Positions 31,399 to 63,629 of a DNA stretch of 64,000 bases are shown here, one piece after another. A program made the translations under genes and the position numbers. Under the pieces are notes generated by a model, which had not been told where the DNA came from, ran no database searches, and saw only the letters and a list, made by a program, of their open reading frames with translations. Every line of letters begins with the position of its first letter. Positions within the stretch are counted from its first letter, which is position 1. Origin of the DNA: a virus; the IMG/VR virus record IMGVR_UViG_3300042563_002756. One strand, written 5' to 3'.

Positions 31399-32310
31399 AT
31401 GCGATTTATTTTTTTTACAATTTTAATTTTTATCACTTCTATAGCTAATTCTACAGAACTAATTTGGATAAACTCACCTTATAGTGCAGGTCACAGCGGG
31501 CACAATTCTTTAGAAAAAGTACTTACAAAAGCTAACTCATCTCAACAAGACTATATTTTTAAAATTCAAATAAAACCTGGCGGCCAGGGAATAGTTGCAT
31601 TAAAAGAAACGGATATAAATCCGTCGTCTGCTCTAGCAATTGTACATGCTGCATTTGTTGACAATGTTGAGAAAAATTTAATTAAAAGAAATGATTATGT
31701 TGCTATCCACGGTATGGGAGATGCATGTTGGGCTGTTGTATCGTCAAACGGAATACAATCTGTTGGTGTTTCGAGTCTGCAACACACGTCCGAAATCGTA
31801 GTCGGAACAGTGGGAATTGGAAATGCTACTCATCTTACAGCATTAGAAATTGGTAGAAAATATAATATTCCAGTTAGATTAGTTCCATTTAAATCAAACT
31901 TCGATGCATTTGTCAATCTTGCAGGAAATAATGGAGTTAATTTTACTATAGAACGACTATCCACAGTTCAAAATTTTAAACAAAAGAATTCGAATATTAA
32001 AATTTTAGGACTTAGTTGTACGACAAGATCTCTCTACGAACCATCTATAAAAACTTTATCTGAACAGGGTATAAATGTTCCGTCAGTGTTTAATGTGATT
32101 GTTTCGAATAGACAAATGAGCGAAGCAAAACGAAAAACTATAGGAAGAATTTTAGACAAATCTACTAAAATAGTAGGCAATGATGAGATAATGAAACTTA
32201 GTGATATGAGAAGTCCAGTGTTTGACTCAATTAATGCTGAAGATTTTTTTAATGATAGGATTAATTCTATTTCAAATATTAGAAAACGCCATTCTCAGGC
32301 AATACAATAA
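31399..32310 (+). CDS. TctC/Bug-family periplasmic solute-binding protein-like, divergent (signal peptide)
   Basis: signal peptide; blocks NSPYSAGHSGHNSL, IKPGGQGIVA, VGTVGIGNATHLTALEI, RLVPFKSNFDAFVNL align to TctC conserved blocks. Confidence 0.55.
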   Translation: MRFIFFTILIFITSIANSTELIWINSPYSAGHSGHNSLEKVLTKANSSQQDYIFKIQIKPGGQGIVALKETDINPSSALAIVHAAFVDNVEKNLIKRNDYVAIHGMGDACWAVVSSNGIQSVGVSSLQHTSEIVVGTVGIGNATHLTALEIGRKYNIPVRLVPFKSNFDAFVNLAGNNGVNFTIERLSTVQNFKQKNSNIKILGLSCTTRSLYEPSIKTLSEQGINVPSVFNVIVSNRQMSEAKRKTIGRILDKSTKIVGNDEIMKLSDMRSPVFDSINAEDFFNDRINSISNIRKRHSQAIQ

Positions 32311-32317
32311 CCCTCTT

Positions 32318-32692
32318 TTAAAGTATGTCTGATATGTTCCAATTACCTTCGGGCAGAATAATTTCTTGTACAGTTCCGTCTTCGCTTGATATTTCAATAA
32401 TTTTTGCACCTGCGGTAATGCCTACTAAAGCATTATACTCGTCTCGTATGATCCAAAATGGATCCATTTCCGTATCGTGATCGTATTTGTGAAATTCCTC
32501 TAAATTTTCCCATTCGGCATAATAATTTAAAGTCAATTGGTCTTCACTCACATTATGCTCCCATTTAGTGATCTTTTCTTCTCCAATGTAATAATGCCAA
32601 CGAGTTAACCACTCATCGTCTGGCTGCATTACTTCATAATGCCAGAAAATTTCTGGCATTGGCCTATTAAATACTCTTTTAAAAATTATCAT
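32318..32692 (-). CDS. hypothetical protein (124 aa)
   Basis: ORF. Confidence 0.4.
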   Translation of the reverse strand: MIIFKRVFNRPMPEIFWHYEVMQPDDEWLTRWHYYIGEEKITKWEHNVSEDQLTLNYYAEWENLEEFHKYDHDTEMDPFWIIRDEYNALVGITAGAKIIEISSEDGTVQEIILPEGNWNISDIL

Positions 32693-32728: not shown

Positions 32729-33709
32729 ATGCTAAATATGAGTGGTATAAAGGAGATTGATATGACCGCCAAACTAGTTAGATGGGTGCTTGCACACGAA
32801 CCTATTGAAATTTTTATTAGAGCTGCTGAAAAATTTGCTGAGATAGTAGAAGAAAGAGCTCCAGGAAGATTAAAAATTGAAGTATTAATGCTTAGTGAAT
32901 ATGCTGAAAAATATCAAAACGGTAAAAAAATAACCAAGCATGACTTACTTGATTTGATGGATAAAGATGAAATTGAAATGAGTCAAATGTATACCTACGT
33001 CTTGAGTAAGTTTAACAAAGACCTAAATGCATTGGACATGCCATTTTTATTCAACGATCACGATCATGCAGCTAGAGTATTTGAAGGACCTATTGGTGAT
33101 CAACTATTAAACGGTTATTCTAAAACTAACAGTAATATCAAAGGTTTGGCATTTACCTATAGTGGAGGATATAAGAATCTCCCGTTTAATAAAAAGATTA
33201 CTTCGTTAAGTGACTTAAAAGGTGCTAAGGTTAGAGTATCTAACAGTCCTGTATGCTTTGATACATTTAAAGCACTAGGGGCAGATCCTATTGTAATGGA
33301 TGTTGAAGAAATTACCCCTGCAATAAAAGATGGTAGAATTGATGCAGGTGAAAGCTCTTGGCCTAGAATTTACGGTTGCGATCAAAACACAGTTGCTAAA
33401 AGTATTTTTAACACAGGTCACAGTCTGTTATTAACTAATATTATTATCAACACTAAATTCTTTAATAGTTTAGATTACGAGATGCAGAATCTATTAAAGG
33501 AAGCAGCAGTAGAAGCTGGCCGATTCGAAAGAAAAATCAGTGTAGATGATGTTAGTCCTACAATTGATAAAGCACGAGCAGACGGAATCGAAGTAGTTGA
33601 TTTATCTCAGAAAGATCTAGAAACGTTTAAAGAGTTATCAAAAGAAATTTATTCAAAGTACGAAAATTTCTTCAGTAAAGGCTTGTTAGACAATATTAAG
33701 AAACACTAA
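32729..33709 (+). CDS. DctP-family TRAP-type solute-binding protein homolog lacking a signal peptide
   Basis: MPFLFNDHDHAARVFEGPIGDQLL, KGLAFTYSGGYKNL, LKGAKVRVSNSPVCFDTFKALGADPIVMDV match DctP blocks; no N-terminal signal sequence. Confidence 0.7.
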   Translation: MLNMSGIKEIDMTAKLVRWVLAHEPIEIFIRAAEKFAEIVEERAPGRLKIEVLMLSEYAEKYQNGKKITKHDLLDLMDKDEIEMSQMYTYVLSKFNKDLNALDMPFLFNDHDHAARVFEGPIGDQLLNGYSKTNSNIKGLAFTYSGGYKNLPFNKKITSLSDLKGAKVRVSNSPVCFDTFKALGADPIVMDVEEITPAIKDGRIDAGESSWPRIYGCDQNTVAKSIFNTGHSLLLTNIIINTKFFNSLDYEMQNLLKEAAVEAGRFERKISVDDVSPTIDKARADGIEVVDLSQKDLETFKELSKEIYSKYENFFSKGLLDNIKKH

Positions 33710-35013
33710 ACCCAATCTATTTTATAGTTCTTCAACCCGGCTTCAAAGTAACATTTGACTTCGGGTTGATCTATTTTTAAAACTCGATAATTTTCGTCCA
33801 GCGCCCATCTAGTATCTAGATCCTTCCAATTTTGTTTGTATACTCGAGCAATAATTACTGGCATAGATGGCATTTTTATTTTATTAAAAAAATAAAAATC
33901 GTTTTTATCAAATTTGTGCAGATAACATTTTGATGCCCACTTGTATGTACTTTGTGTAATGCCTTTAAGTTTTTCCCCGTTATTGTTATTATGCATACTC
34001 CATTGTTGATAATCTAAAGAACCGAACCAGCTTATTATGTCTTCAGTTAATATTGATTTAAAATTATCGTTAAGTCCGTAAACCATTGCAGGACGAACTG
34101 CACCCCAAACAAATCTAGGATTAAACATTGACCACCAGAAGAAATCATGCAAACTGTAAATCGGTACATTGACACTTTTTATATTGTTGTGTATTTTTTC
34201 ATAAAATAAATGTCCAAAATTTGCATCGTGAGAATTTTCAGAACTTATATTTTGTGGAACGTAGGGTATAGTTTTTAAAGAGTTTATGCCTCTCTTTAAT
34301 GCAGTATTAAAATAATATATTAAAATATCTCGATACTCAGAATAGTGCGTGTTTGAATCACTTACCTTGTTGTAAAGATGACTGAGATTTTTTCTACCGG
34401 CAGTCTGCATAGTTTCTTCAAGGTATTTCATTTGAGGATACAGTTTAACCCCCAATTCTGTTCCGTAAATGAAATCACCTAGATCAGCTGATATACAAAA
34501 ATGTTGTTTATTTTTTATAAAATCACTATAAAAATTTTTAGAAGAATCGATAATTTTAAATTTACCTTCGATGTGATTTGTATAGAAATATGGATTTTCT
34601 ATAATAGAATCAGCACTCATTGAAATTATTATTTTTTCTAAATATTCTTGTCCTAGATTTTTTATTAACGAGGCCATTACAACAGTACTGTCTATTCCTC
34701 CAGAATAAAATACAACACAGTTTTTACCTGTTTGATCGATAATATTTTTTATATCCATTGCCCTGCGGTCTGTTACTTCTTCAAATGATAGATTGAACTT
34801 TAAATCAAAAAGTGGAATCTCCCATCCGGACGGTACTACCGTATCCCAAGGATCACTCCATTCTCCGGCTCTTGACAAATATGCAGCGGGTGGATTTGCT
34901 CTTGCAATATTACAATAAAATCTTCCTCCTTCGTCGAGCTCGTCAAAAAATTTAGACAGAGTTGTTGCAACGCTGTAAGAATTAACCGAAGTGCTTTTAT
35001 ATAGTAGTTTCAT
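33706..35013 (-). CDS. PP-loop ATP-pyrophosphatase-family protein, paralog 1 (435 aa)
   Basis: SGGIDS PP-loop (VVFYSGGIDSTVV); paralogous to 35611, 40604, 42724. Confidence 0.65.
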   Translation of the reverse strand: MKLLYKSTSVNSYSVATTLSKFFDELDEGGRFYCNIARANPPAAYLSRAGEWSDPWDTVVPSGWEIPLFDLKFNLSFEEVTDRRAMDIKNIIDQTGKNCVVFYSGGIDSTVVMASLIKNLGQEYLEKIIISMSADSIIENPYFYTNHIEGKFKIIDSSKNFYSDFIKNKQHFCISADLGDFIYGTELGVKLYPQMKYLEETMQTAGRKNLSHLYNKVSDSNTHYSEYRDILIYYFNTALKRGINSLKTIPYVPQNISSENSHDANFGHLFYEKIHNNIKSVNVPIYSLHDFFWWSMFNPRFVWGAVRPAMVYGLNDNFKSILTEDIISWFGSLDYQQWSMHNNNNGEKLKGITQSTYKWASKCYLHKFDKNDFYFFNKIKMPSMPVIIARVYKQNWKDLDTRWALDENYRVLKIDQPEVKCYFEAGLKNYKIDWV

Positions 35014-35599
35014 ATTTTCTTAAATAGTTGTAGAAAGTTTGCCTATATGAATATAATGATGAACTCATATTGGTGTTTTCTTTGAAAATTTTTGATATTT
35101 TTTCTAAAGCCTCTTGCCTAGATGAAGAAAAATATAAAATATGATCTATATGCCAGAGAAAAGGTTTAGCCAGGCCGGTGTCGTCGGATAATGTTGATAG
35201 TGAAATATCATCGCTAACTAAGGATAATATATATTTTTGATCGCTAGAGTTTAAACTTGCATCAGTTAGTCTAGAAGACAACACAACATTATATGCAAAA
35301 TTGCAATAATTCTGATATTCTAAAAAAACATTCTGAGGAATATCCGGTGATCGTTCTCGAGTATCAAAAAGTTGATCTTCGATATGTTTTATTCGAGGAA
35401 TTGGTTTATCAAGCATTGCAATACTAGGATCTTTTATACCCCATGTGCTGCAATTATCATTATTGATACTGTTATTATTAAATTCAAATAAAGACAATAA
35501 AAATTTGGATGAAAGAATTTTACCAGTTTGTAAAGATATCCATCTGTCGTCTTTAACGAGTAGAAATCTTTCTAAGTTGTTTGAGTATATACCGATCAT
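34997..35599 (-). CDS. hypothetical protein (200 aa)
   Basis: ORF in island operon. Confidence 0.4.
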   Translation of the reverse strand: MIGIYSNNLERFLLVKDDRWISLQTGKILSSKFLLSLFEFNNNSINNDNCSTWGIKDPSIAMLDKPIPRIKHIEDQLFDTRERSPDIPQNVFLEYQNYCNFAYNVVLSSRLTDASLNSSDQKYILSLVSDDISLSTLSDDTGLAKPFLWHIDHILYFSSSRQEALEKISKIFKENTNMSSSLYSYRQTFYNYLRKYETTI

Positions 35600-35610
35600 C
35601 GCAATATTTA

Positions 35611-36495
35611 TTATAGTAAGTTTTTAGGTATTCTAAGTGTGGTTCCTATATAAGGGCTCCAATTAGCACTAGCTGTTTTTTGTAGGTGGTCCATGATTTT
35701 TGTTGCAACATCTGGATTTTTACCAAATACAAAGTTATCAGTTTTTTTCTTATAAACAGATTGATGATGATAATCGGGAAATATTATGCTCGACTTTGGT
35801 TCATAAAAAAATTTGAAATTAGTTCTTAATCTTGGATCTTTTAAAATATGATACCAAGTATTAAAATTTCTACTATAAAAATTACCTTCTCCTTGTTTAT
35901 TATAATGAGTTAAACATTGATTGTATAAAATTTCTGAGAGGTGCAAAGGTATGTAGATGTATTGATTATCAAAATCTTTAACCGAATTATTATAAATTGT
36001 AAGATATTTGTTGACATTATTTTTTTCTATATCCCCTTCTCCCATTATGATATAAAACTCTTTTGGTATAAATTTAGTTAGTATTGCACCTACCACATAT
36101 CCCGGAAACATAACAGGACAAATTTGAAATATTTCGTCGATAATATAATCAAAGATGTCATTAACTGTGATTTCGAAAATGTTAAGTTTTGTGTTGTGGT
36201 ACTGAGAAATTAATTTTGCTCCTTCGAGCATATTGTCATTTATATTTCGAATATGGAGGAAAAAATATTCGCAAGGAACTTTTAGTTTATATAAAGAATT
36301 AGCAATTAATTCACTATCTATACCCGAAAGGCACAATCCTATTTGATTGATGTTTTTTAATTTAGCATCATTATATAAGTCTGTAACTGATAAATCAATA
36401 GCCTCGAGGTAGTTGTTTGTAATAATTGGATCAAACTCGTTAACTGTATAAGTAAATTGACACGTTAATTTATTAAAATTAAAATTTCGTTTCAT
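35611..36495 (-). CDS. PP-loop-like paralog 2 with degenerate motif (294 aa)
   Basis: LCLSGIDSELI (SG-DS with one Gly lost); same fold family as neighbours. Confidence 0.5.
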   Translation of the reverse strand: MKRNFNFNKLTCQFTYTVNEFDPIITNNYLEAIDLSVTDLYNDAKLKNINQIGLCLSGIDSELIANSLYKLKVPCEYFFLHIRNINDNMLEGAKLISQYHNTKLNIFEITVNDIFDYIIDEIFQICPVMFPGYVVGAILTKFIPKEFYIIMGEGDIEKNNVNKYLTIYNNSVKDFDNQYIYIPLHLSEILYNQCLTHYNKQGEGNFYSRNFNTWYHILKDPRLRTNFKFFYEPKSSIIFPDYHHQSVYKKKTDNFVFGKNPDVATKIMDHLQKTASANWSPYIGTTLRIPKNLL

Positions 36496-36745
36496 AATAA
36501 TTAATAACTCTTTGTTTTTTTTCTTTTAATTCTGCACTAATTTCATTTTCTAATAAAATTTCCAATCCCCTTGAGCTCAACGTAAGATGGTATTCGATAA
36601 TATTTTTATTGTTAACAACTTTAAAAAACTCACTGGTTTCTTTTATTTCAATTATAATGTTGTCGTCTGAGACAGTTATATATTCATTTATTATATAACA
36701 GATAAGACCAGTCGCCTTATCTATAATTGCAAATTTTTTAATCAT
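36479..36745 (-). CDS. hypothetical small protein (88 aa)
   Basis: ORF. Confidence 0.35.
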   Translation of the reverse strand: MIKKFAIIDKATGLICYIINEYITVSDDNIIIEIKETSEFFKVVNNKNIIEYHLTLSSRGLEILLENEISAELKEKKQRVINYYETKF

Positions 36746-36756
36746 ATAAATACCTT

Positions 36757-38091
36757 ATGTATAATTTGTGTTCTGTAATTAACTATCAAAATTTAAATAA
36801 ACTTGCAATATCTAACGGAGCACAGTCATTAACATATAAAGAATTAAACAGTTTAGTTGGAAACTATGCCCACTATCTTAGTAGTATCGATCTAAAAAAT
36901 AAAAAAATATTTCTTGATATATCTAACCCTGTTGAATTTATTGCTGCTTATCTAGGAGTGTTAAAGTCAGGTAATATCAGTGTCCTTGTTAATAATAATT
37001 TATCAAAAGAAAAGAAAAAGCAAGTACTTTCTGATTTAGATATAGACTATAGGTTGTCTTCTAAAATATTTCAAGAGATTAACGATATACCAATTGTTGA
37101 AAGAAATGGTAGAGATCCATGCACTATTTTATTCACTTCTGGATCAATCAAATCTAAAGGAGTAATTGTACCCCATAATTTAAAAATTAATGTAGAAAGA
37201 ACTGTAAGTCCTCGAGGAACTAAAAGTTTAAAATTAATCAGTAGTCCCTTGTACCATTTAAACGGTTTATTTAATTGTTTATTAAGTTTAGCAAATGGCG
37301 GAACATTATTTACTGCTGAGAAATTTAGTATAAATTCATTTGAGACGTTTATAGATTCATATGCCATTAATAATATCGTGTGTGTTCCGACGGTAATTAA
37401 TATGTTAAACAATAATAAAATGTTTGATACTGTAAAATTAGTTCGTCTGACAAGTGCTCCGACAAGTTATTCCACTTTTCAAAAAGCTAAAAGAATATTT
37501 CCAAATGCGACTATTAGACTAGGCTACGGTCTTACTGAAGTTGGTTCTAGTTTATTTGGAAATCATCCGTTTTTACCTACTCCGGAAACAAGTGTTGGAT
37601 ATCCGTTTGCTGATATAGAATATAGATTGATCAATAATATACTTGAAATAAATAGCCCTTCTATGTTAATTGGATACACTGATTTAGATAAATCTAAAAT
37701 TACTAAAGATGGTTTTTTTGTTACTAATGATCTATTTGAAATAGATAAAGATGGATTTTATTATTTCATAGGCCGATTTGATGATATGTTTGCATGTGGC
37801 GGAGTAAAAATTTATCCGTCAGAAATAGAAAAAATTTTAGAACAATATGAAGGTGTTGAATCTGCAACGGTAATAAAGGTACAAGACAAAATAAAAGGAT
37901 TTAAACCGTATGCTTTTGTAAAATCTCAACATAATATTTCTCAATTAGATTTAGAAAATTATGTTAGAAGCAAGATGCCGTTTAGTCATTGCCCGAGAAA
38001 AATTTGGGTTGTAAAAGATTTTCCTTATAATAGTATAGGAAAAATTGACAAATTGTCTTTAACAAAAGAAGCTGAAAAATATATATGTTAA
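36757..38091 (+). CDS. ANL-superfamily adenylate-forming enzyme (acyl-CoA ligase / stand-alone adenylation domain)
   Basis: TSGSIKSKG (A3), YGLTE (A5), GGVKIYPSEIE, terminal IGKIDK lysine (A10). Confidence 0.75.
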   Translation: MYNLCSVINYQNLNKLAISNGAQSLTYKELNSLVGNYAHYLSSIDLKNKKIFLDISNPVEFIAAYLGVLKSGNISVLVNNNLSKEKKKQVLSDLDIDYRLSSKIFQEINDIPIVERNGRDPCTILFTSGSIKSKGVIVPHNLKINVERTVSPRGTKSLKLISSPLYHLNGLFNCLLSLANGGTLFTAEKFSINSFETFIDSYAINNIVCVPTVINMLNNNKMFDTVKLVRLTSAPTSYSTFQKAKRIFPNATIRLGYGLTEVGSSLFGNHPFLPTPETSVGYPFADIEYRLINNILEINSPSMLIGYTDLDKSKITKDGFFVTNDLFEIDKDGFYYFIGRFDDMFACGGVKIYPSEIEKILEQYEGVESATVIKVQDKIKGFKPYAFVKSQHNISQLDLENYVRSKMPFSHCPRKIWVVKDFPYNSIGKIDKLSLTKEAEKYIC

Positions 38092-38822
38092 AAAATAAAA
38101 TTGTTTTGATTGCTGGCGGAATGGGACAAATAGGATTAGAAGCAGCATCTAGATTATCAAATTTAGGTGCTATTGTTATTTGTTTAACTAGACAGGACCC
38201 TACTGAAGCAACTAATATTTTAAAAAATATTTCAATAAACTGCATAGCAGTTCAGTGCGATATTAAAAATACAACTATGATAAAAGATGTTGTACAGCAT
38301 ATTAGTAAAGAATATGGAAGAATAGATGTATTGATCAACAGTGCAGGTGTTACACATGATATTAAACTAGGAAATATTGAATCGATTACAGATGAAATAC
38401 TAGATAATATTATTGATACAAATCTAAAAGGATCTTTTAAATTAATAAGAGAATGTAAAGAACTTTTAGATAACTCAAGTAGTCCGCTAATTATTAATGT
38501 GTCATCGACATCAAGTTTACGGGCAAGTCGAAGTAACCCGATTTATGCTGCTTCGAAATCAGGTATTAACATACTGACCCAAACATTAGCATTACACCTT
38601 TCTCCGAGTATTAGGGTTGTTGGAATTGCGCCCGGCTACTTAGAAAAGGCTGTAGCAGGCGCTAATAAACCCAGTGAATATAATGACAAAATAGCACAGT
38701 CGTTACCCTTAAGACGAATTGGCACAGGAAAAGATGTAGTTGATGTGATAGAAAGTATTATTACCAAGATGACATGGATGACTGGAAATACTATTGTATT
38801 GGACGGAGGAATGACCATTTGA
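38085..38822 (+). CDS. short-chain dehydrogenase/reductase (SDR)
   Basis: IAGGMGQIG cofactor motif, NSAG, YAASK catalytic Tyr/Lys. Confidence 0.8.
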   Translation: MLKNKIVLIAGGMGQIGLEAASRLSNLGAIVICLTRQDPTEATNILKNISINCIAVQCDIKNTTMIKDVVQHISKEYGRIDVLINSAGVTHDIKLGNIESITDEILDNIIDTNLKGSFKLIRECKELLDNSSSPLIINVSSTSSLRASRSNPIYAASKSGINILTQTLALHLSPSIRVVGIAPGYLEKAVAGANKPSEYNDKIAQSLPLRRIGTGKDVVDVIESIITKMTWMTGNTIVLDGGMTI

Positions 38823-39691
38823 AAACTATAATAACATGTGCAATAACCGGAGCGTCGACTAGAAAAGATCAAACTCCTTATCTGCCAATTACTCCTGTAG
38901 AAATTGCCACCTCGGCGTTAGGGGCAGCATCAGCCGGTGCTGCTATTGTCCATTTACATGTAAGAGATCCTGAGACAGGCAATCCTAGCATGAGTTTTAA
39001 ATTATATGAAGAAGTTGTTTGTTTAATTAAAGAAAAAAATGACAAAGTTTTAATAAATTTAACAACGGGACCTGGTGCTCAATGGTTTCCTACTCCTGGT
39101 AATTTAGCGCAAGGAAGTCATCATAGCCTATTGCTCGGAGCCGCTGAGAGAGTGAATCATGTTGTAAAATTACGTCCCGATTTATGTAGTATAGACTTTA
39201 ATACAATGAATCAATCTAGCAACGGTGTTAGAATCAATCATAAACTAATTATAAAAGAAATGATTAAACTGATTCAAGATGCAGGCGTAAAACCTGAGCT
39301 AGAATTATTTGACAGTGGTGATTTAGTGTTGGCCAACGAATTTTATCAAGAAGGAATAATTGAAAAAAACCCATTTTGGCAATTTGCTATGGGGATCAAA
39401 TATGGTTGGGCTGCATCAACTAATACATTGATGTATGCACAACGAGAGTTGCCTTCGAGCGCAGTATGGAGTGCATTCGGAATAGGAAAAACTGAAATGC
39501 CTATATTGGCTCAAACTTCTATATTAGGTGGGCATGTAAGAGTGGGATTAGAAGATAATATCTATACAAAAAGAGGAAGATTAGCTGAATCAAATGCAGA
39601 GCTAGTTGAAATGGCTGTTAATATTATCGAGTTGCTAGGAGGAAATGTTGCAACTCCGGAAGACGCTAGATCTCTATTATCAATTATTTAA
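38819..39691 (+). CDS. BKACE/Kce-family beta-keto acid cleavage enzyme (DUF849); probable TTG start overlapping SDR stop (ORF open from 38774)
   Basis: AITGASTRKDQTPYLPITPVEIA...IVHLHVRD and GGHVRVGLEDNIY...LAESNAELV match Kce; TTGA overlap with GGAGGAA RBS. Confidence 0.8.
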   Translation: MKTIITCAITGASTRKDQTPYLPITPVEIATSALGAASAGAAIVHLHVRDPETGNPSMSFKLYEEVVCLIKEKNDKVLINLTTGPGAQWFPTPGNLAQGSHHSLLLGAAERVNHVVKLRPDLCSIDFNTMNQSSNGVRINHKLIIKEMIKLIQDAGVKPELELFDSGDLVLANEFYQEGIIEKNPFWQFAMGIKYGWAASTNTLMYAQRELPSSAVWSAFGIGKTEMPILAQTSILGGHVRVGLEDNIYTKRGRLAESNAELVEMAVNIIELLGGNVATPEDARSLLSII

Positions 39692-40595
39692 TCTTTCCTT
39701 CATCAATCAGATTGTTCTTTATGAGATATTCTAAAGTACTTTTATTAAATTCTTGAATAATTTGTGTATCGTTACCGTATTTGAGATAAGGCGTTATACC
39801 CAATCCTTTGATTCTTTTTTCAAAAGAAGCATCGAACTTATTTCTTATATCAAACAAAATTTTCTCTTTAATTTCAGCTGATAGACTTTTGCTAATTACA
39901 AGTCCCATTATATTTGATAGAGGAAATTTTTCTTTGAACTGTGTATCCCATAGAGGAACGTTTTCACTTATAGGGTTAGTGACTATTATTGCATTAAGCC
40001 TAGGATTAGTAAGGTGCTGTCTATGAACTGCATACTGGACCCACATACAGTTAATTTGATTACCTAGTAAGTCAAATAACGGTTTCCCTCCTCCAGCTGG
40101 ATATTGAACAATTATATGATTGTTTTTTGGAAGTTTATTTATAATCAATTGAGTAGTATAATGATCACCGGTTCCGACTCCAACTGAACCGAAGCTTAGA
40201 GATTTTTTATTATTCTGTAGATCTGTGAAATTCTTTATTCCTGTTTCGGCATTGCAAAACAATACCATAGGCATTACTCCGATCGATGCAATAATTTCTA
40301 GGTCTTCGGTTACAATTTTTTTAACATCGGGGTTCATTTTGTCAATTGACACAAAAGACATAATGGATGCAAATACCATAACGGCATTTTCTTTATGAAC
40401 GTGCCTAAGTGCAATCTGCGATGATCCGCCTGGCTTGTGTACCACAACGTAAGCAGGATCATTAAACGTTTCTTGAACTGACCTAGCAATTAAACTACCC
40501 GGACCGCCAGGTCCAAACGGAGCTACAATTTCTATTGTGGTTGCATAAAGGACTGAGTGAAACAGCATTATAGCAAGTAGTAATATTTTCTTCAT
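39684..40595 (-). CDS. TctC/Bug-family periplasmic solute-binding protein (signal peptide)
   Basis: IVAPFGPGGPGSLIARSV, VVVHKPGGSSQIA, FGSVGVGTGDHYTTQL, QYPAGGGKPLFDLLGNQINCMWVQ match TctC blocks. Confidence 0.75.
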   Translation of the reverse strand: MKKILLLAIMLFHSVLYATTIEIVAPFGPGGPGSLIARSVQETFNDPAYVVVHKPGGSSQIALRHVHKENAVMVFASIMSFVSIDKMNPDVKKIVTEDLEIIASIGVMPMVLFCNAETGIKNFTDLQNNKKSLSFGSVGVGTGDHYTTQLIINKLPKNNHIIVQYPAGGGKPLFDLLGNQINCMWVQYAVHRQHLTNPRLNAIIVTNPISENVPLWDTQFKEKFPLSNIMGLVISKSLSAEIKEKILFDIRNKFDASFEKRIKGLGITPYLKYGNDTQIIQEFNKSTLEYLIKNNLIDEGKIK

Positions 40596-40603
40596 AATCT
40601 TGT

Positions 40604-41857
40604 TTAGTCTAATAGCCAGTCCCCACCAAAGGGAAATGAATGTGTTGGTTTAAAATTAACAGCAGCATTATTCTTGTCGAAAGCTAAATATTCTCCATCT
40701 ATCCCATTTAGGTAACTCTTTACATAATAATTCCATTTGTCCTGTATTGGTTTAGTTTCATGATGGTCCCAGAATACCCAATCTTGCGGTTTTCCAACTT
40801 TTACCTGAGTTAGTATTTCGATATCTTTTTTTATTTGAAATCGATTAGTATTCCAAAATGGATACAGAACTTTTTTACATATTTCGTCTTTTAAGTACTG
40901 CGGAGTTTGATTTAGCAGCATCAGTGTTTTTTCTTTTGATAGATTATTAAACTTTGAAAGAGGATACAATAGCATTCTATCTTCTTTATTAGTTTTATAA
41001 TGGAGATAAACTTGATATGCCATTTCCACAGCTAGTAATGGGTAGTCTGGTGTTATATAAAAATACTCAGTACCGGTACCGCCAAAAGTCAAGTTGTGTT
41101 GCAGAGGCCAATCAACAAATCTCGAAACTACTTTATTAGGTTCTAATTCAGAAATATACAAGTTGGGTTTATCTGCTCCTTCGATAATGCCAACATTTAC
41201 ACCTTTGTCGAATAGAGTTTTTTCAAATTTAGAAAAATGCTGCATTCTATAAAAACTTATAGGGCTTAAATAGTGATTTTGTTTTTGAAACTGTGTATCA
41301 TCAATTCTTTTTTCTGTTGTAATATTTTCAAGCCAGTCGTCGACATAGATTTTTATGTCTGGATAATTTTTTGAAATCCAATCTAAGTCGGGTTTTATTA
41401 CATAGTCCCATTCACTTAATTCGTTCTTAGGACTGAAATTTAAATTGTTAGGGGTGTATAGATTTTTTGATTTAGCAGAAACTGGCCAATTAACATATAT
41501 TGCATCTAATTTTATATTGTTCTTTAAAAAAGTCATCAATACATTGTGACTGTCTGAACCGCCTGAATATTTTAAAATTAAATATTCATACTTGTCTCTT
41601 AATTGCATTGCACGATCTTTATATAAAACATTCAACGGAATTTGTCCACACAACGAATAGTTGAAGTTTTTCCATATGTCTGAATAATATCGAAATGCAA
41701 TACCTACATTAGTGTTTAATTTTTTTAATCGAGTAGCTTCGAGTAATGCCTCTACTTTGTTTAAGTAATCTTTGTAAAAATTATGATTACTTTTGTTATA
41801 TACTCTATAGCATCCAAAAGAGTTAAGTGATAGATCAGTAATTGTAGTATTAGTCAT
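40604..41857 (-). CDS. PP-loop ATP-pyrophosphatase-family protein, paralog 3 (417 aa)
   Basis: KYSGGSDSHNVL PP-loop. Confidence 0.65.
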   Translation of the reverse strand: MTNTTITDLSLNSFGCYRVYNKSNHNFYKDYLNKVEALLEATRLKKLNTNVGIAFRYYSDIWKNFNYSLCGQIPLNVLYKDRAMQLRDKYEYLILKYSGGSDSHNVLMTFLKNNIKLDAIYVNWPVSAKSKNLYTPNNLNFSPKNELSEWDYVIKPDLDWISKNYPDIKIYVDDWLENITTEKRIDDTQFQKQNHYLSPISFYRMQHFSKFEKTLFDKGVNVGIIEGADKPNLYISELEPNKVVSRFVDWPLQHNLTFGGTGTEYFYITPDYPLLAVEMAYQVYLHYKTNKEDRMLLYPLSKFNNLSKEKTLMLLNQTPQYLKDEICKKVLYPFWNTNRFQIKKDIEILTQVKVGKPQDWVFWDHHETKPIQDKWNYYVKSYLNGIDGEYLAFDKNNAAVNFKPTHSFPFGGDWLLD

Positions 41858-42700
41858 TTAGTTTAAATTAGAGCCTAACCAGTTGCCATAATGCACACAA
41901 TGATCCTCTAGTCTATTAGAAGATCGTGTGAGCGGATAGTGCGGTCCTTTCTGAGATTCAATCGCAGCAACATCTTCTCGAAAAACAGGTTCTATATAGT
42001 GTTCAAATTTTTCTCTTTGTCCTACATTGGTAGTTTTATCGAAATAATATTGTGTGATCCAATTAAAACCAAATTCACTTTCTGTATTGTGCGGGGTAGT
42101 ATAATTTAATGCTACACACCCCGGGCTCCATTCTATAAACGTATATGGATAAACAAATAACCACCAGCCTGTTGAACAGGTTTGCAAAATCCATCCGTCA
42201 CCGTCATACATTTCAATATCATTTAAATTTGTAATTTCTGCTAATTCAGGATGTACTACATCTTCACCTTGTCTAATATGTAGTAGGTCTGCCTGTATTT
42301 CCATCATCCAAAGCCAACTACCCTTTTCACTTGTTCCGTGTCTAGAATGGCTATATTCTAGATTAGTCTCTGTTGCAAGATCGTTGACCCATTGGTGATC
42401 TGGTTCTAAAAAGTTTTTAAATATTAATCCACTTTTTCCAGTTTGTGCAGATCCACATGCAATTTTTCGATCGTTGTTTATAGGATCTCCGTCCTTATTC
42501 CATTCAAATCCATGAAACTTGCATACTATATTTTCAACTATTGAACCCGGCTCTGCTAGCGGATACATACGATGGGGGCAATGGCGTCGAAAAAGATTTA
42601 TTTTATCTTGATTTTTATTAAGGATATAATCTGGTACAACAAAATTGCCAGCATCGAGGGCAGATGTATGGGCTAAAATTTTTGGTGGATTGTTGAACAT
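41858..42700 (-). CDS. Rieske [2Fe-2S] domain oxygenase-like protein (280 aa)
   Basis: CPHR ... CKFHG (CxH-x16-CxxH) Rieske signature; His-containing C-terminal domain. Confidence 0.65.
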   Translation of the reverse strand: MFNNPPKILAHTSALDAGNFVVPDYILNKNQDKINLFRRHCPHRMYPLAEPGSIVENIVCKFHGFEWNKDGDPINNDRKIACGSAQTGKSGLIFKNFLEPDHQWVNDLATETNLEYSHSRHGTSEKGSWLWMMEIQADLLHIRQGEDVVHPELAEITNLNDIEMYDGDGWILQTCSTGWWLFVYPYTFIEWSPGCVALNYTTPHNTESEFGFNWITQYYFDKTTNVGQREKFEHYIEPVFREDVAAIESQKGPHYPLTRSSNRLEDHCVHYGNWLGSNLN

Positions 42701-42723
42701 GTATTTTCTTTTTCTACAAATAT

Positions 42724-43641
42724 TTATTGTAATAACAAACGGTTTAATTCTTCTTCAGAATATTTAATTGTAGTATCGTCGATGTCTCTCATATATTTGT
42801 TATAAAAATCATTAATAAATTGAGGTCTATGAGCTACAGGATTATCTAATCCCTCGTATCCTACTAGTTTAGGTTTATATTCCATTGTAGGCCAAATGTA
42901 TTTGTGTATAGCAACTCTACTGCTGATATTACTAATCTTGCCCAAGTGCTCATCATTTAGTAGTTGCCTAACTAATGGAAGTTCTTTATAAGACATAATT
43001 ATTTCAGGAGTATATTCGTACCAATCACCTATAATAGTTCTCCCTATATTTTTAGCGTAGGTAGATACAGAATATCCATCCTCGTGTAATTGAAATAGCC
43101 AACGAGACTTTTTACTGTAATCATTTTCTAATTCACGACGCCAGTAAGGTTCGCCGTCGCAGAAGATAGGTATGTTGTCTAAGTAGTCAATAAATTTAAG
43201 TCTAGGCAGTCTCCCTGCCATTGGTATCAGTGTACTATTAAACAATTCCAATGCTTCTTCTTTAAAGAATTTTTCTACGTTAAAATCGACGATATTGTAA
43301 GGTATGTTTAGTTCGTTGCATAATTTTACAGCATTGTTTACGTCGCGAATATTGTAGTTATTTTCTAATCTAAAGATAAAAGTATTATGTTTAATACCAG
43401 CACTCTTAAATGTTCTGACAACTATTTCACTGTCTGTACCTCCACTAAGGCATACGTCAAACGGTTCTTTATAAGAATCTCGCATGATACGTGCATTATT
43501 AATGAGTGCGTCTTTATAAGAAGTTAACGGAGTACTGATCTTGTTGTTAAAATTTATAGATATAATACTATGTTTATCTTTTTTAACACCGTATTCAATA
43601 CCGTCAAAATTATAACTCATCCAGTTATTAAATCTTTGCAT
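42724..43641 (-). CDS. PP-loop ATP-pyrophosphatase-family protein, paralog 4 (305 aa)
   Basis: CLSGGTDSEIVV PP-loop. Confidence 0.65.
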   Translation of the reverse strand: MQRFNNWMSYNFDGIEYGVKKDKHSIISINFNNKISTPLTSYKDALINNARIMRDSYKEPFDVCLSGGTDSEIVVRTFKSAGIKHNTFIFRLENNYNIRDVNNAVKLCNELNIPYNIVDFNVEKFFKEEALELFNSTLIPMAGRLPRLKFIDYLDNIPIFCDGEPYWRRELENDYSKKSRWLFQLHEDGYSVSTYAKNIGRTIIGDWYEYTPEIIMSYKELPLVRQLLNDEHLGKISNISSRVAIHKYIWPTMEYKPKLVGYEGLDNPVAHRPQFINDFYNKYMRDIDDTTIKYSEEELNRLLLQ

Positions 43642-43649
43642 TGAATATT

Positions 43650-45128
43650 CTAATCTGATTTGTGTTGTAAGTTAAAAGTCTTTGATAGTTCTAACATATC
43701 ATTTACGTATATTTCGCATTCTTTCTTAATCAACGAGGGAATATTATATTTAGATATTATTTCTTTTCTGGATAAATTCAATAATTCCTTATCTGGAATT
43801 CCGAATCGTCTTAGGTAATTATAAGTAAATCCACCGAATTTAAATTTTGAAAACTTGTTAGATTTTTCTGTTATATTGTGAGCAATATCAAAGCACTGTG
43901 AGTAACTTAACCCTGTATTTTTATTATACCATCCTTCATCTGTAATTTCATAACCATACTTATCATGATTAATATCAAATTCAGAGTGGAAGTTTTTATT
44001 AGTTTTACTAAGAGGAGAAATACCTAAGGGATTTACATACCAGCTATCTAAATAATTTTTGTCTGAGAATAAAAATTCTTCAAGTTCGGTAAAAGTATCA
44101 AGCGTATCATGTGGTAATCCTAATATAAATCCTGAATTTAATATTACGTCTTTGAATTCATTTTGTTTTAATTCTTTTATAAATTCTAATTGATCGTAGG
44201 GATTTAAACCTTTACCAATAGATTTAGCAGATTGGTGATTAATACTTTCAATACCAAACATTGCCGATGTGAGCCCGGACTCTTTTAAGTACGGGATAGA
44301 CTCTGGAAATCGCATTAGTAAGTCAATCCTCAAATAACTAGAAAAATGAATTTTAAATTTAAGTTTAGAAAATACGTTATCATGTAAATATTTTAACTTG
44401 TCTAAACTATCATTATAGGTATCATCACTAAAAGTATAATAAGTTATTCCAAAATTTTCATAATTATAATTTAACTCATCTAATAAAACATTTCCGTGTT
44501 TTATCCACTCACCTTTTGTTTTTCCGTTTAATGGGAATGCACAAAACTTACATTTAAAAATGCAACCTCTGCTTATCTCAATTGGCAATGCATCTAAATT
44601 ACTAATCAGATCATTTTTAGTGTACGTTATTTGACTTGATGAAAAATCTTTAAATTCACTACCTTGAATTAATGTAGTACGAAAAGAAATATTAGATGAT
44701 TTGTTTGTCAAACACCATTCAGTGAATTCTATAATTTCTTTGTCACTATAGCTCTTGAATATCTTTACTCCATATTGTTCTAATGGAAAATATCTAGACC
44801 CACCTGATATTATTTTAACTTTGGGATTTAAATTCTTGATAAATTGTATAAAGTTAACAAACAGTTCATCGTTTGTAGTAGATTTAAACGTTAATCCAAG
44901 AAGTTTATCAAAAAATGTAGTACTAAATCCTACCCACAATGTGCTTGATGATATTGAATTTTTTAAGACTTCTTTTAGCTGTTCTAGTTTATTCACATAT
45001 TCAAATGCACTTAGATCAATGCACACAGTAGAATAATTATTCTTTCTCAGTTCGGATGATATTCTAAATACGCCGCCGTGCTTTTGTAGTGGCATTGGGG
45101 TACTACCGTATAATAAAATACAATTCAT
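43650..45128 (-). CDS. radical SAM enzyme with N-terminal B12-binding-like domain, paralog 1
   Basis: CxxxCxxC (RGCIFKCKFCAF); N-terminal Rossmann-like region; 492 aa. Confidence 0.7.
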   Translation of the reverse strand: MNCILLYGSTPMPLQKHGGVFRISSELRKNNYSTVCIDLSAFEYVNKLEQLKEVLKNSISSSTLWVGFSTTFFDKLLGLTFKSTTNDELFVNFIQFIKNLNPKVKIISGGSRYFPLEQYGVKIFKSYSDKEIIEFTEWCLTNKSSNISFRTTLIQGSEFKDFSSSQITYTKNDLISNLDALPIEISRGCIFKCKFCAFPLNGKTKGEWIKHGNVLLDELNYNYENFGITYYTFSDDTYNDSLDKLKYLHDNVFSKLKFKIHFSSYLRIDLLMRFPESIPYLKESGLTSAMFGIESINHQSAKSIGKGLNPYDQLEFIKELKQNEFKDVILNSGFILGLPHDTLDTFTELEEFLFSDKNYLDSWYVNPLGISPLSKTNKNFHSEFDINHDKYGYEITDEGWYNKNTGLSYSQCFDIAHNITEKSNKFSKFKFGGFTYNYLRRFGIPDKELLNLSRKEIISKYNIPSLIKKECEIYVNDMLELSKTFNLQHKSD

Positions 45129-45898
45129 GTTTTGATTACCTTAATAATTAGTCCAGCAATATCAAGTTCCCACCATTTCTTTTTGAACATATAGTCTTTA
45201 GGGTATCGATGATGATTATTGTGCCACGATTCCCCCCAACTAGGAATAGCCCATATCCAGTTGTTTGTGCTTTGATCGTTTATATTATAACTACGATATC
45301 CACCTAACCAATCAGGTTTATGACCTACGTAATTAACTACATTACTCATAATTCCAGTAATCAGCGACGGTGCCCAAAGTAAAAATATCATTAAATAAAA
45401 TCCACCAATCATAAACAATATCATGCTATACACAGCAATAATTGCAAAATAATAACGGTGTAAAAACTGTTGAAATTTATCCGTTACTATATTTCTCATA
45501 CGCCATTTAGTATTACTATCAATTTCATTTACGTAATCAAGTGTAAAGATTTTCAAGCCTTTATATAATGGACTGTGAGGATCACTTGGTTTGTCACTTT
45601 TTAAGTGATGATTAATATGAATAGCGACCCATGCTAATGGACTTCCTGTTCCTGCAAAACAGCCCATCACTGATAAAATTTTAGTTAATAAAGGATATGT
45701 AGTATAGCTATTATGAGTAAGGCTTCTATGGTATGTGACGACAATACCCAAACAACCGTATAAAAAATATCCTAACAATATAAGCAATACAGCGTTAGTC
45801 GTTAGACCATACCAAGTTATTCCAGAAATGGTACCTAGTAATGATAAAATCATGAATAGTTGGGAACCGCGTGTGCTAGATGATAGATATGTTGTCAT
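45125..45898 (-). CDS. acyl-CoA/acyl-lipid Delta9 fatty-acid desaturase-family membrane protein, paralog 1
   Basis: His boxes HRSLTH, HINHH...DPH, HNNHH with SCD-like spacing; multiple TM segments. Confidence 0.75.
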   Translation of the reverse strand: MTTYLSSSTRGSQLFMILSLLGTISGITWYGLTTNAVLLILLGYFLYGCLGIVVTYHRSLTHNSYTTYPLLTKILSVMGCFAGTGSPLAWVAIHINHHLKSDKPSDPHSPLYKGLKIFTLDYVNEIDSNTKWRMRNIVTDKFQQFLHRYYFAIIAVYSMILFMIGGFYLMIFLLWAPSLITGIMSNVVNYVGHKPDWLGGYRSYNINDQSTNNWIWAIPSWGESWHNNHHRYPKDYMFKKKWWELDIAGLIIKVIKT

Positions 45899-45928
45899 AA
45901 AGTTATGTAACTTATTATTTTAAGTTAT

Positions 45929-46522
45929 TTAATCTTGTTGTAGCGTACTCCAGGCATAATTGTAATATTTTAAATAGCTACGGTTAATCAAATGTTCGAA
46001 GTCATTGTTTGGTTCTCCGTATACCGCTAATAGACCCTTGCTACAATTAGGATCATATTTGGAAGAATGTTTTACTGGGCCGTCTAGATAATAAAAACTG
46101 TTAGTATCATTTGGCATCGTTAAGGTATAGGAACTAGTTTCATTTGTAAAATTCCATACAGGTTCTTGATAAGTGTTCCAGAGGAATGTTCGTATACTAG
46201 GGGTATTTCTTGTGTTATCAGAATGGGGGGATATCGTTTCTAAATTTTCTATCACTCTGATAAGTCCAATTTTAAATTTAACTGAATCTTGAATTTGTTT
46301 GCATAAGTCTATCACTACTGGATTCTGTTCAGCATATGGTGCTTGATAACTGGTAGGATGGCCACGAATTTTGTATAAGTCTAAGCCTCGCCAGTTTGAC
46401 GAAACGGTGTTGTGGTTCCTAATAGCTTTATGCATAACATCAGCAGTCTTCCAGGTACTCCACCATTCATTCCAATCATTGGGTACAATTTTAGGTATAT
46501 CTAACGGACAAACTAATATCAT
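45929..46522 (-). CDS. hypothetical protein (197 aa)
   Basis: ORF between the two desaturases. Confidence 0.4.
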   Translation of the reverse strand: MILVCPLDIPKIVPNDWNEWWSTWKTADVMHKAIRNHNTVSSNWRGLDLYKIRGHPTSYQAPYAEQNPVVIDLCKQIQDSVKFKIGLIRVIENLETISPHSDNTRNTPSIRTFLWNTYQEPVWNFTNETSSYTLTMPNDTNSFYYLDGPVKHSSKYDPNCSKGLLAVYGEPNNDFEHLINRSYLKYYNYAWSTLQQD

Positions 46523-46639
46523 TAATTATTAAACTTACTTTTTATCGATTTATAAGATTCTGTAGTTGACCCGAATGATAGCAAATATCTGACTTTGCGC
46601 CGACCTTTATTTGATACCCTATGAAATTGTTTAGTGCTA

Positions 46640-47446: not shown

Positions 47447-47488
47447 TTGTAGGAAGCATAAGTATAGTTATCTACTGAATTTATTCCT

Positions 47489-63554: not shown

Positions 63555-63629
<75 letters not shown>

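Follow-up and report, generated by a model that had tools for sequence, protein, structure and literature searches.

Four divergent families of putative AsnB-type PP-loop proteins and their partner genes in a phage genomic island

Four PP-loop genes in one locus

A 64,000-nucleotide stretch of viral DNA (IMG/VR record IMGVR_UViG_3300042563_002756; hereafter the window) carries four genes for PP-loop proteins within one locus, raising the question of what such proteins do for a phage and whether they act together. The genes, here called A to D, are listed below with their motifs, which were checked by translation.

33706..35013, minus strand: A, 435 aa, predicted stand-alone AsnB-type synthetase-domain protein; PP-loop SGGIDS at 34687-34704, second motif ADLGDFIYG at 34462-34488
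35611..36495, minus strand: B, 294 aa, predicted AsnB-type synthetase-domain protein; PP-loop one residue short, SGIDS at 36313-36327, second motif MGEGDIEK at 36022-36045
40604..41857, minus strand: C, 417 aa, PP-loop protein; SGGSDS at 41549-41566, second motif IIEGADKP at 41165-41188
42724..43641, minus strand: D, 305 aa, PP-loop protein; SGGTDS at 43429-43446, second motif IFCDGEPYW at 43141-43167

The positions and lengths agreed with the original prediction, as did the N-proximal placement of the loops, with the motifs 57-104 residues from the N-terminus. Among the window's 101 ORFs of 100 aa or more, three SGGxDS motifs occurred, compared with a mean of 0.025 and a maximum of 1 in 1000 residue shuffles. 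A family HMM search found no fifth copy in the window. A and D matched numerous PP-loop families below threshold, in each case around the motif, which supported the PP-loop identity. As in the PP-loop superfamily, the nucleotide-binding fold was of the Rossmann-like alpha/beta/alpha type, with an SGGxDS-type loop joining strand 1 to helix 1. The proposed richness in Phe, Tyr and Asn was real in numbers (21-25% in A-D versus a neighbour mean of 17%), but unrelated neighbours reached 20-22%, and it largely reflects the AT-rich composition of the island. The quartet was also found, in unchanged order, in a close relative phage (C 93% identical) assembled independently from two samples.

Relationships among the four families

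The four proteins had been regarded as paralogs expanded in this phage. Their homology was supported by hhalign profile-profile comparison, in which D matched B (98.2%), C (94%, 185 columns) and A (91%), and A matched C (91.5%), with the loop in register. The comparisons of B with A and with C were insignificant, and the link of B to the others ran only via D. As judged from these profiles, D is the hub joining the other three families. Direct BLASTP comparison of the four gave marginal matches (E 0.01-1), and BLASTP single linkage placed B, C and D in one cluster. However, the idea of an expansion within this phage was misleading. The profile-aligned identity among A-D was 17-21%, lower than the 27-65% to orthologues in other phages, implying that the duplications are old. 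The A, B, C and D families travel together in other phage genomes, and the set is found again in hundreds of genomes of uncultured phages.

The loop was well preserved within the families. SGGxDS was kept in all 37 A-family members and in 38 of 40 C-family members, and S98, G100, D102 and S103 were invariant in C, for which 86 homologues were found. The D family had 673 representative clusters at E<=1e-3; it includes GNAT fusions and some members in which the loop Asp is replaced. The putative catalytic motifs are under selection.

The shortened B loop had been described as degenerate, in a copy that had lost a motif Gly. It does not mark a decayed copy, as all 26 aligned B-family members had S-G-x-D-S-E, together with about 30 other invariant residues. 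In the AF2 models, strand 1 and helix 1 were separated by three residues in B versus four in A. It is conceivable, though doubtful, that B above all, and perhaps others, are non-catalytic pseudoenzymes serving as scaffold or regulatory subunits of a catalytic paralogue. The loop falls one residue below the canonical pyrophosphate-binding loop in every B-family member as well as in the AF2 model, B shares a tight operon with A, A-like and B genes overlap in a related locus (L004), and the loop Asp replacements in the D family point the same way. Against this, B keeps the loop Ser, Gly, Asp and Ser, the GEGDxEK motif and the invariant residues, charged and aromatic ones among them, throughout the fold. 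Conservation of this kind is what a functioning active site would show, more than a relic. A pseudoenzyme role for B is compatible with the explanation of A, C and D preferred below.

The start of B overlaps a small gene:

36479..36745, minus strand: h88, 88 aa; overlaps the B start by 17 nt

The position of h88 was unchanged in locus L001 and in L195/L196, and in a wider census it adjoined B in just two of seven cases. It had no family match.

Fold and family assignment

Confident AF2 models of A (pLDDT 92) and B (pLDDT 94.5) had an AsnB-type nucleotide-binding fold in which the motif connected strand 1 with helix 1, and the synthetase fold reached beyond the PP-loop core. Among the subfamilies listed in the original prediction, the predicted structures thus singled out the stand-alone AsnB C-domain enzyme as the probable one. 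A second motif followed a β-strand at the place where AsnB has SGEGSDE, namely ADxGD in A, GEGDxEK in B, EGADKP in C and GxGE in D. Alignments by hhalign of each family to single-sequence E. coli AsnB were non-significant except in the loop region of D (53%); the non-significant alignment of B placed GEGD on GEGSD.

Curated models did not reach their cut-offs. D scored 13.9 bits with PF00733 (cut-off 21) and 16.3 with TIGR01536 (cut-off 267), A, B and C had zero matches to either model, and three of 45 D-family members matched Pfam Asn_synthase at E<=1e-3. Direct assignment using Pfam, NCBIfam, PHROGs and PADLOC found no match for B or C, and those for A and D were sub-threshold and lay within the loop region; C also had no direct match in Pfam or the PDB. 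The best sequence-level PDB matches of A and D were to NadE (2e18, E 0.047; 3p52, E 2e-4 with D alone and 8e-5 with the D-family profile), and the D-family profile matched QueC at 1.3e-4, the profile matches covering the loop region. NadE uses free ammonia and, like A-D, has no glutaminase domain.

The claimed absence of a glutaminase domain from A-D was confirmed. Just 56-103 residues precede the loop, and the N-termini (MKLL, MKRN, MTNT and MQRF) have no Cys2. The N-terminal class II (Ntn) amidotransferase domain with its Cys nucleophile, characteristic of AsnB, was missing, and no GATase Pfam match was found in A-D or the neighbouring genes. The proteins were also, as proposed, neither of the size of QueC, about 220 aa, nor QueC-like in the C-terminal half. 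They differ from the AsnB family (AsnB/ASNS, β-lactam synthetase, the carbapenam synthetase CarA and the hydroxyamidotransferase TsnB9; PF00733) in several ways. The sequence identity is 8-15%, and the lengths are 294-435 aa versus about 500-580 aa. β-lactam synthetase, CarA and TsnB9 keep an N-terminal Ntn glutaminase-type domain, active or degenerate, whereas A-D have none. The missed PF00733 cut-off, the short B loop and the dedicated non-enzymatic or redox partner of each A-D family are further differences.

Conserved partners of the PP-loop genes

The four proteins had been suggested to catalyze successive steps of one pathway. In a census of 158 loci, each family instead had its own conserved partner, indicating separate modules. 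The surrounding genes are as follows.

31399..32310, plus strand: TctC1, second TctC-family solute-binding protein, with signal peptide; Pfam TctC 2.1e-5, below the gathering score
32318..32692, minus strand: h124, 124 aa, recurrent in these islands
32729..33709, plus strand: DctP-fold (TRAP solute-binding) protein, convergent with A; likely start Met12 at 32762; Pfam DctP 7.6e-56
34997..35599, minus strand: h200, 200 aa, upstream dedicated partner of A; overlaps the A start by 17 nt
36757..39691, plus strand: AMP-binding (CoA-ligase-like) enzyme, short-chain dehydrogenase and β-keto acid cleavage enzyme (Pfam)
39684..40595, minus strand: TctC2, TctC/Bug-family solute-binding protein with signal peptide (hydrophobic leader), partner of C; Pfam TctC 1.8e-8
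41858..42700, minus strand: Rieske [2Fe-2S] protein (Pfam), partner of D
43650-45128, minus strand, and 48085-49554, plus strand: B12-binding radical SAM enzymes (Pfam), recurrent island neighbours
45125-45898 and 46640-47446, minus strand: two membrane desaturase-like proteins, recurrent island neighbours
45929-46522, minus strand: h197, recurrent island neighbour
47489-48094, plus strand: h201, recurrent island neighbour

The A module was the most clearly defined. In the census, 48 of 49 h200-family genes adjoined an A-family gene. The family is 200-260 aa long and well conserved over its whole length, with no match in Pfam, PHROGs or the PDB. We considered whether h200 could be a split-off, Cys-less glutaminase domain of A, and rejected this for want of evidence; h200 has no Cys2, profiles of 4 and of 18 sequences revealed no resemblance to the AsnB N-domain, and its PDB matches were chance-level and unrelated. 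The DctP-like protein is the third member of the triad. Its A-linked orthologues all begin at ..K[IV]RWVLAHEPIE, with no hydrophobic leader or signal peptide, and this TRAP-type binding protein apparently never leaves the cytoplasm. The salt-bridge Arg, read from the sequence by eye, appears to be retained. In two high-GC MAG contigs (L016 and L017), the triad stood alone between unrelated bacterial genes, and thus behaves as a self-contained unit. The CoA-ligase-like, dehydrogenase and β-keto acid cleavage trio often accompanies it, lying beside A in L001, L011, L013, L015, L018 and L195.

C and D had different partners. In the 158 loci, 57 of 101 TctC genes adjoined a C-family gene, and a TctC gene was present in the locus for 99 of 126 C genes; the position of TctC1 was unchanged in L195/L196. 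The same census showed 19 of 21 Rieske genes adjoining a D-family gene. It contained 76 h124 genes, 21 of them adjoining a C gene, and homologues of h124 were present in L001, L003, L004, L006 and L009. The neighbours from 43650 to 49554 recurred with PP-loop families in other loci. Promoter and terminator scans of the locus were at chance level, and no RNA family was found in it. The DctP and TctC folds suggest that these partners bind carboxylates; proteins bound to galacturonate and glucuronate are among the closest solved DctP relatives.

Alternative explanations

Membership of A-D in the TilS, MnmA, DndC, QueC or WbuX/PseA families, as suggested in the original prediction, was not supported. 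All curated models scored far below their cut-offs, the folds ranked under AsnB-type enzymes, and the defining extra features were absent. QueC is defined by a Zn site, and DndC carries an Fe-S site. The only near-invariant Cys was C108 in the D family, and the A, B and C families had no conserved Cys; this lack of conserved Cys clusters argues against the Fe-S or Zn-dependent PP-loop classes. Sulfur-transfer readings were rejected because no Fe-S or Zn sites were found. D scored 19.4 bits with the QueC model PF06508 (cut-off 22; residues 63-131 only) and 18.7 with TIGR00364 (cut-off 150). Unlike the QueC family (QueC, Cap9 and QatC), A-D have no conserved C-terminal Cys cluster, and their matches, below the gathering score, did not extend past the first 60-80 residues following the loop. 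With DndC, A scored 19.9 bits (TIGR03183, cut-off 290.4) and E 1.2e-5 (PADLOC), both over residues 84-157 only, with no dnd genes nearby. Neither the Cys pair nor the Fe-S Cys cluster of MnmA/TtuA/NcsA/LarE was found, and these models scored 16-21 bits versus cut-offs of 150-364. The TilS arrangement (TIGR02432), a PP-loop with substrate- and tRNA-binding C-terminal domains, was also not observed; Pfam and NCBIfam reported neither C-terminal domain in any of A-D. A role in nucleic acid base modification, on tRNA (TilS-like) or on DNA by 7-deazaguanine (QueC-like) or phosphorothioate (DndC-like) chemistry, is therefore highly improbable, despite the weak loop-region matches to QueC, TilS, MnmA and DndC models, the 14 of 45 D-family members matching Pfam QueC at E<=1e-3 and a nearby dCMP deaminase gene. 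The matches span just about 60-80 residues around the loop and lie far under the cut-offs (for example, 22 bits versus 536 and 20 versus 290), and TGT/DpdA, FolE, QueD/E and DndA/D/E genes occurred in no examined neighbourhood.

The same adenylation chemistry might cyclize or conjugate peptides or proteins, with h200, h88 and h124 as substrates or adaptors. Lasso-peptide cyclases (McjC-type C proteins) are AsnB-derived adenylating enzymes without glutaminase activity that form an isopeptide bond with an amine already in the substrate, and the defence proteins Cap9 and QatC, of the QueC family, attach a carboxylated base to a protein amine. We regard this as unlikely. Lasso-peptide production depends on a B protease and an RRE as well as on a short precursor peptide, whereas the recognizable partners here are solute-binding and Rieske proteins, the former (DctP, TctC) being small-molecule binders. 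None of the three lasso components was found among the called genes of the window and ten related places (Pfam tables), very short ORFs lying outside the systematic search, nor did we see a leader peptidase, an RRE/PqqD gene or a short precursor-like ORF. The length and even conservation of h200 are unlike those of a precursor peptide, and PADLOC defence models gave just weak, loop-only matches. Less probable still is a role as glycan-tailoring amidotransferases, which would turn the uronic acids of nucleotide sugars into uronamides (WbpS-like), or their N-acetyl groups into acetamidino groups (PseA/WbuX/LfnA-like), for host-surface remodelling or virion decoration. The island has a UDP-glucose dehydrogenase fragment, GT1 and GT2 glycosyltransferases and tail-fibre genes, and resembles the host-recognition islands described for pelagimyophages (PMC7029224). 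Some of the solved structures nearest to the A-linked DctP-like protein have galacturonate or glucuronate bound (PMC11668362), and the D-family GNAT fusions would fit an acetylate-then-amidate order. PseA, WbuX and LfnA (PDB 8wex) are likewise PP-loop enzymes without a fused glutaminase domain, and sugar-modifying genes are part of the island context. However, A-D had neither a PseA/WbuX/LfnA enzyme as curated model or closest fold nor a nonulosonic-acid or O-antigen cluster around them.

Proposed function

The explanation that we favour, with moderate confidence, is that A-D represent four ancient, very divergent stand-alone families of AsnB-type (N-type ATP pyrophosphatase) proteins that form amides by adenylation in separate modules, acting on small organic or sugar acids. 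ATP would be bound at the PP-loop and the second, acidic Gly-rich motif. A carboxylate would then be adenylated to acyl-AMP with release of PPi, a chemistry that the motif conservation supports, and AMP would be displaced by a nitrogen nucleophile to give an amide. As there is no glutaminase domain, the nucleophile would be free ammonia or an amine. In the A module, A would work with h200 and the cytoplasmic DctP-like carboxylate-binding protein, often joined by the CoA ligase, dehydrogenase and β-keto acid cleavage enzyme. C would be paired with the secreted TctC carboxylate-binding protein, and D with the Rieske oxygenase-type protein, beside the membrane desaturase-like and radical SAM enzymes. 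B would be a D-derived family with a shortened loop. The substrates would most likely be small organic or sugar acids handled in infection. The data show the fold, the motifs, the missing glutaminase domain, the division into families and the preference of each for its partner, and from these we infer the ATP-dependent adenylation, the nitrogen nucleophile and the small-molecule substrates.

Distribution and significance

IMG/VR holds at least 430 viral stretches with genes for A relatives and about 400 with genes for C relatives. In contrast to this abundance, no homologue of A-D was detected in 50,697 sequenced phage isolates, and the proteins had no Pfam family and no name in any source. 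Neither the locus nor the four proteins matched GenBank phages by megablast or tblastn, and in a BFVD fold search every match was an uncharacterised protein from an uncultured phage. The source names of NCBI-derived cluster members were either 'hypothetical protein' or absent, and we found no description of these genes in the literature on cyanophage, pelagiphage and BKACE contexts.

More tentatively, the PP-loop genes and their dedicated partners may form an undescribed, phage-widespread toolkit of glutaminase-less AsnB-type amide synthetases, common to large aquatic phages and a few bacteria, in which a recruited intracellular solute-binding fold hands a carboxylate to A, yielding, during infection, new amide-linked metabolites or lipid and envelope modifications. 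The clearest unit of such a toolkit is the signal-peptide-less TRAP-type binding protein with the 200-aa protein and A.

The A-D families are abundant, conserved and enzymatic-looking, yet they were missed by the standard annotation of uncultured aquatic phages. Their strict one-to-one pairing with carboxylate-binding and Rieske proteins gives testable two- and three-gene units. The substrates would reveal how large phages affect the carboxylate and nitrogen metabolism or the envelope of their hosts, and would also add to the AsnB-type adenylating enzymes known to function with no glutaminase domain.

Sequence features of the four PP-loop proteins

The four predicted ORFs were all present on the minus strand, and translation verified their motifs.

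33706-35013, minus, A, 435 aa, SGGIDS at 34687-34704
35611-36495, minus, B, 294 aa, SGIDS at 36313-36327
40604-41857, minus, C, 417 aa, SGGSDS at 41549-41566
42724-43641, minus, D, 305 aa, SGGTDS at 43429-43446

The window has 101 ORFs of 100 aa or more, and these held three SGGxDS motifs, against 0.025 expected and a maximum of one in 1000 residue shuffles. Family HMMs detected no fifth PP-loop copy in the window. The quartet arrangement is not an assembly artefact, because a close relative of the phage, whose C is 93% identical and whose sequence was recovered in separate assemblies of two JGI samples, carries the four genes and their partners in identical order. A second conserved motif follows a β-strand in all four proteins, at the position of SGEGSDE in AsnB; its sequences are ADLGDFIYG (A), MGEGDIEK (B), IIEGADKP (C) and IFCDGEPYW (D). 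The proteins had been described as lacking a glutaminase domain, and this was confirmed: the regions before the loop comprised 56-103 residues in A-D, and none started with Met-Cys. No GATase gene was seen near the four PP-loop genes. None of the four families had a conserved cysteine cluster, which excluded the Fe-S/Zn/Cys-dependent classes (TtuA/NcsA, MnmA, QueC, DndC).

The degenerate motif of B had been described as one that has lost a glycine. S-G-x-D-S-E was present in 26/26 aligned B-family members, and about 30 further residues were invariant, GEGD.EK among them. The short loop thus belongs to the family as a fixed trait under selection and does not reflect recent decay. Between strand and helix, the loop has three residues in the B model and four in that of A. 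Other phages contain additional B-like genes with SSGIDSQ. That B is a pseudoenzyme seems doubtful, though it would be compatible with the mechanism preferred below.

Homology and fold

Single-sequence searches returned only sub-threshold matches, all within 60-80 residues around the motif. Those of A and D were spread over NadE, QueC, MnmA, DndC, LarE, AsnB and GMP synthase; B and C had no match in these searches. Profile-profile comparisons, with the loop in register, connected D with B (98.2%, E 4e-14, 181 columns), C (94%, 185 columns) and A (91%), and A with C (91.5%), while the B-A and B-C comparisons were insignificant by themselves. BLASTP single linkage across eight loci placed B, C and D in one cluster.

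In fold comparisons, B scored highest with the AsnB type (human ASNS 15.1, beta-lactam synthetase 14.7, AsnB 14.2, CarA 13.9), against about 8-12 with other PP-loop classes (nitrile synthetase ArtA, TilS/MesJ, TtuA, NadE, QueC, Cap9). The scores of A against other classes (GMP synthase, NadE, LarE, PAPS reductases, TilS) were about 5-9. A and B share the AsnB-type synthetase fold, and C and D are homologous to them. We hold this assignment to the PP-loop superfamily and AsnB-type fold with high confidence, much more firmly than any mechanism. A-D differ from the AsnB family proper in lacking the glutaminase domain and in failing the cut-offs of its curated models. Membership tests likewise did not place A-D in QueC, TilS, MnmA/TtuA, DndC, sugar amidotransferase or lasso cyclase.

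Age and distribution of the families

The four-fold expansion first noted is not a recent one: the families are mutually only 17-21% identical over profile-aligned stretches, whereas counterparts from other phage contigs share 27-65% identity with each protein. The freshwater phage contig L004 (349 kb) has D, an A-like gene, B and C inside 11 kb, and other contigs hold five or six PP-loop copies. IMG/VR scans yielded at least 430 stretches with relatives of A, 397 with relatives of C and 18 with relatives of B. Metagenomic homologues numbered more than 200 for A, 86 for C, 38 for B and 673 clusters at 50% identity for D, all unnamed and without Pfam domains. Among the species-representative genomes scanned, A was found in eight MAG contigs. 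In 50,697 GenBank phage records, tblastn gave no match at E<=1e-3 for any of the four, and the best viral structural matches were uncharacterised proteins from uncultured phages. No source gave a name to any family member, and no description of these proteins was found in the literature searched.

The census took in 158 non-redundant loci, each no longer than about 21 kb; they were picked by A, B and C queries, which biases the frequencies. At least two PP-loop genes were present in 94 loci and at least four in 29, with a maximum of seven. All four families occurred together in five.

Partner genes

Each family has its own partners, and two of these belong to carboxylate-binding protein families. 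In the census, an h200-family gene (encoding a 200-aa protein in the window) adjoined A in 48/49 cases, as did a DctP gene in 14/40. TctC genes adjoined C in 57/101 cases and were in the locus for 99 of 126 C genes; a Rieske gene adjoined D in 19/21.

34997-35599, h200 gene, overlapping A by 17 nt
32729-33709, plus, DctP-like (TRAP-type solute-binding) protein

The DctP-like protein is conserved beside A and h200, both in phages and on two MAG contigs of bacteria (L001, L013, L015-L018). Every A-linked DctP-like protein lacks a signal peptide and starts at the mature domain, ..KLVRWVLAHEPIE (pattern ..K[IV]RWVLAHEPIE), unlike the TctC partners, which have hydrophobic leaders. Among the solved structures closest to the DctP-like protein are galacturonate- and glucuronate-bound proteins (ligands from PMC11668362). 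We estimate the identity at about 25-30%, so that a uronate link is a lead only. By eye, we take the carboxylate salt-bridge Arg to be kept (KVRV), with the supporting Arg changed to Lys and Asn to Ser.

In the window, as in six or more further contigs, the DctP-like/h200/A triad is accompanied by a trio of AMP-binding enzyme, short-chain dehydrogenase and beta-keto acid cleavage enzyme. Two of the eight MAG contigs, with 65% and 64% GC (Burkholderiales, Xanthobacteraceae), carry, of this gene set, the triad only, between plainly bacterial flanks (AcrB, HlyD, Liv-type ABC transporter, amidase), implying that the triad acts as a self-contained unit. On the Xanthobacteraceae contig, the genes after the triad encode an amidase, a protein weakly matching the HPr-kinase C-domain and a sulfotransferase (L017, 10322-13776).

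Other observations concern small or fused proteins. The h124 gene (32318-32692, minus) encodes a 124-aa member of a small, acidic, Trp-rich family with 76 genes in the 158 loci, 21 of them adjoining a C-family gene; no family or structure match was obtained for it. A GNAT acetyltransferase domain is attached to some members of the D family, N-terminally in P0301 and P0316 and C-terminally in P0339. Two others of about 660 aa, P0292 and P0308, have about 390 additional residues without a Pfam match.

Genomic setting

The window derives from a large tailed phage and encodes an rIIA-like protein, UvdE and collagen-like tail fibres bearing Mtd_N and S74-chaperone domains. With any sequenced phage, the encoded proteins share only about 28-37% identity, the most complete matches being to the Pseudomonas PA5oct group. 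An island at about 30-52 kb (30000-52000) has 28-36% GC, against 38-49% in the flanks. Besides the entire PP-loop and partner set, it contains glycosyltransferases, a dCMP deaminase and two B12-binding radical SAM enzymes. In this it is similar to the gene-mosaic host recognition clusters of marine T4-like phages, where genes for glycosyltransferases, radical SAM proteins and transport likewise occur (PMC7029224).

7053-11650, minus, two large collagen-repeat proteins, one Mtd_N and one S74 chaperone, likely tail fibres; local GC 46-49%
13662-14690, minus, UvdE UV-damage endonuclease
29417-30250, minus, UDP-glucose/GDP-mannose dehydrogenase homologue, 277 aa
30506-31240, minus, 244-aa hypothetical protein with a HELIH (HExxH) metallopeptidase-like motif
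45125-45898 and 46640-47446, minus, stearoyl-CoA-desaturase-like (FA_desaturase) membrane proteins
49551-50057, minus, dCMP/cytidine deaminase
63556-63629, minus, tRNA-Gly(GCC), the sole RNA gene that ARAGORN and Rfam detect in the window

The dehydrogenase homologue matches only the NAD-binding and central domains in Pfam; such enzymes are usually longer than 277 aa. The HELIH protein had no Pfam match and a weak match to a PHROG of unknown function. Desaturase-like genes recur in these islands, with 139 ORF matches in 191 pooled loci, duplicates still included. Nine paralogues stand in a row in an IMG/VR contig (L003, 7857-20583), often interleaved with uncharacterised proteins of about 190-200 aa (h197 and h201 families).

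Proposed mechanism

The best explanation, which we hold with middling confidence, is carboxylate adenylation. Each enzyme would use ATP to turn a carboxylate into an acyl-AMP, and an amine or free ammonia would then resolve this intermediate. The four had been envisaged as successive steps of one pathway; their family-specific partners instead favour separate modules. One would comprise h88-B-h200-A (h88 being an 88-aa protein) together with the DctP-like protein and with the trio of CoA ligase, dehydrogenase and cleavage enzyme, another C with a secreted TctC, and a third D with the Rieske protein, beside desaturase-like and radical SAM genes. The assignment of small molecules as the substrate class is less firm than the mechanism itself.

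Modification of a protein or peptide, in the manner of lasso cyclases or Cap9/QatC, would fit the tightly coupled small partners, and also neighbours elsewhere that are of the peptide-tailoring type, but no precursor, protease or RRE gene was found among the called genes of the window or of ten related loci, and we consider it unlikely. Glycan amidation is less probable still: although the island has sugar genes and the DctP-like relatives provide the uronate lead, glycosyltransferases are not among the conserved partners, and the solved N-acetyl sugar amidotransferase ranked low, scoring just 5.5 against A and 8.2 against B. Nucleic-acid modification appears very improbable.

Taken together, A-D are stand-alone AsnB-type synthetase domains without glutaminase, belonging to four ancient families with dedicated partners. 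They resemble the synthetase half of AsnB in fold and, as proposed here, may do so in mode of action. The DctP-like partner of A, an apparently cytoplasmic protein of the solute-binding fold, is unusual.
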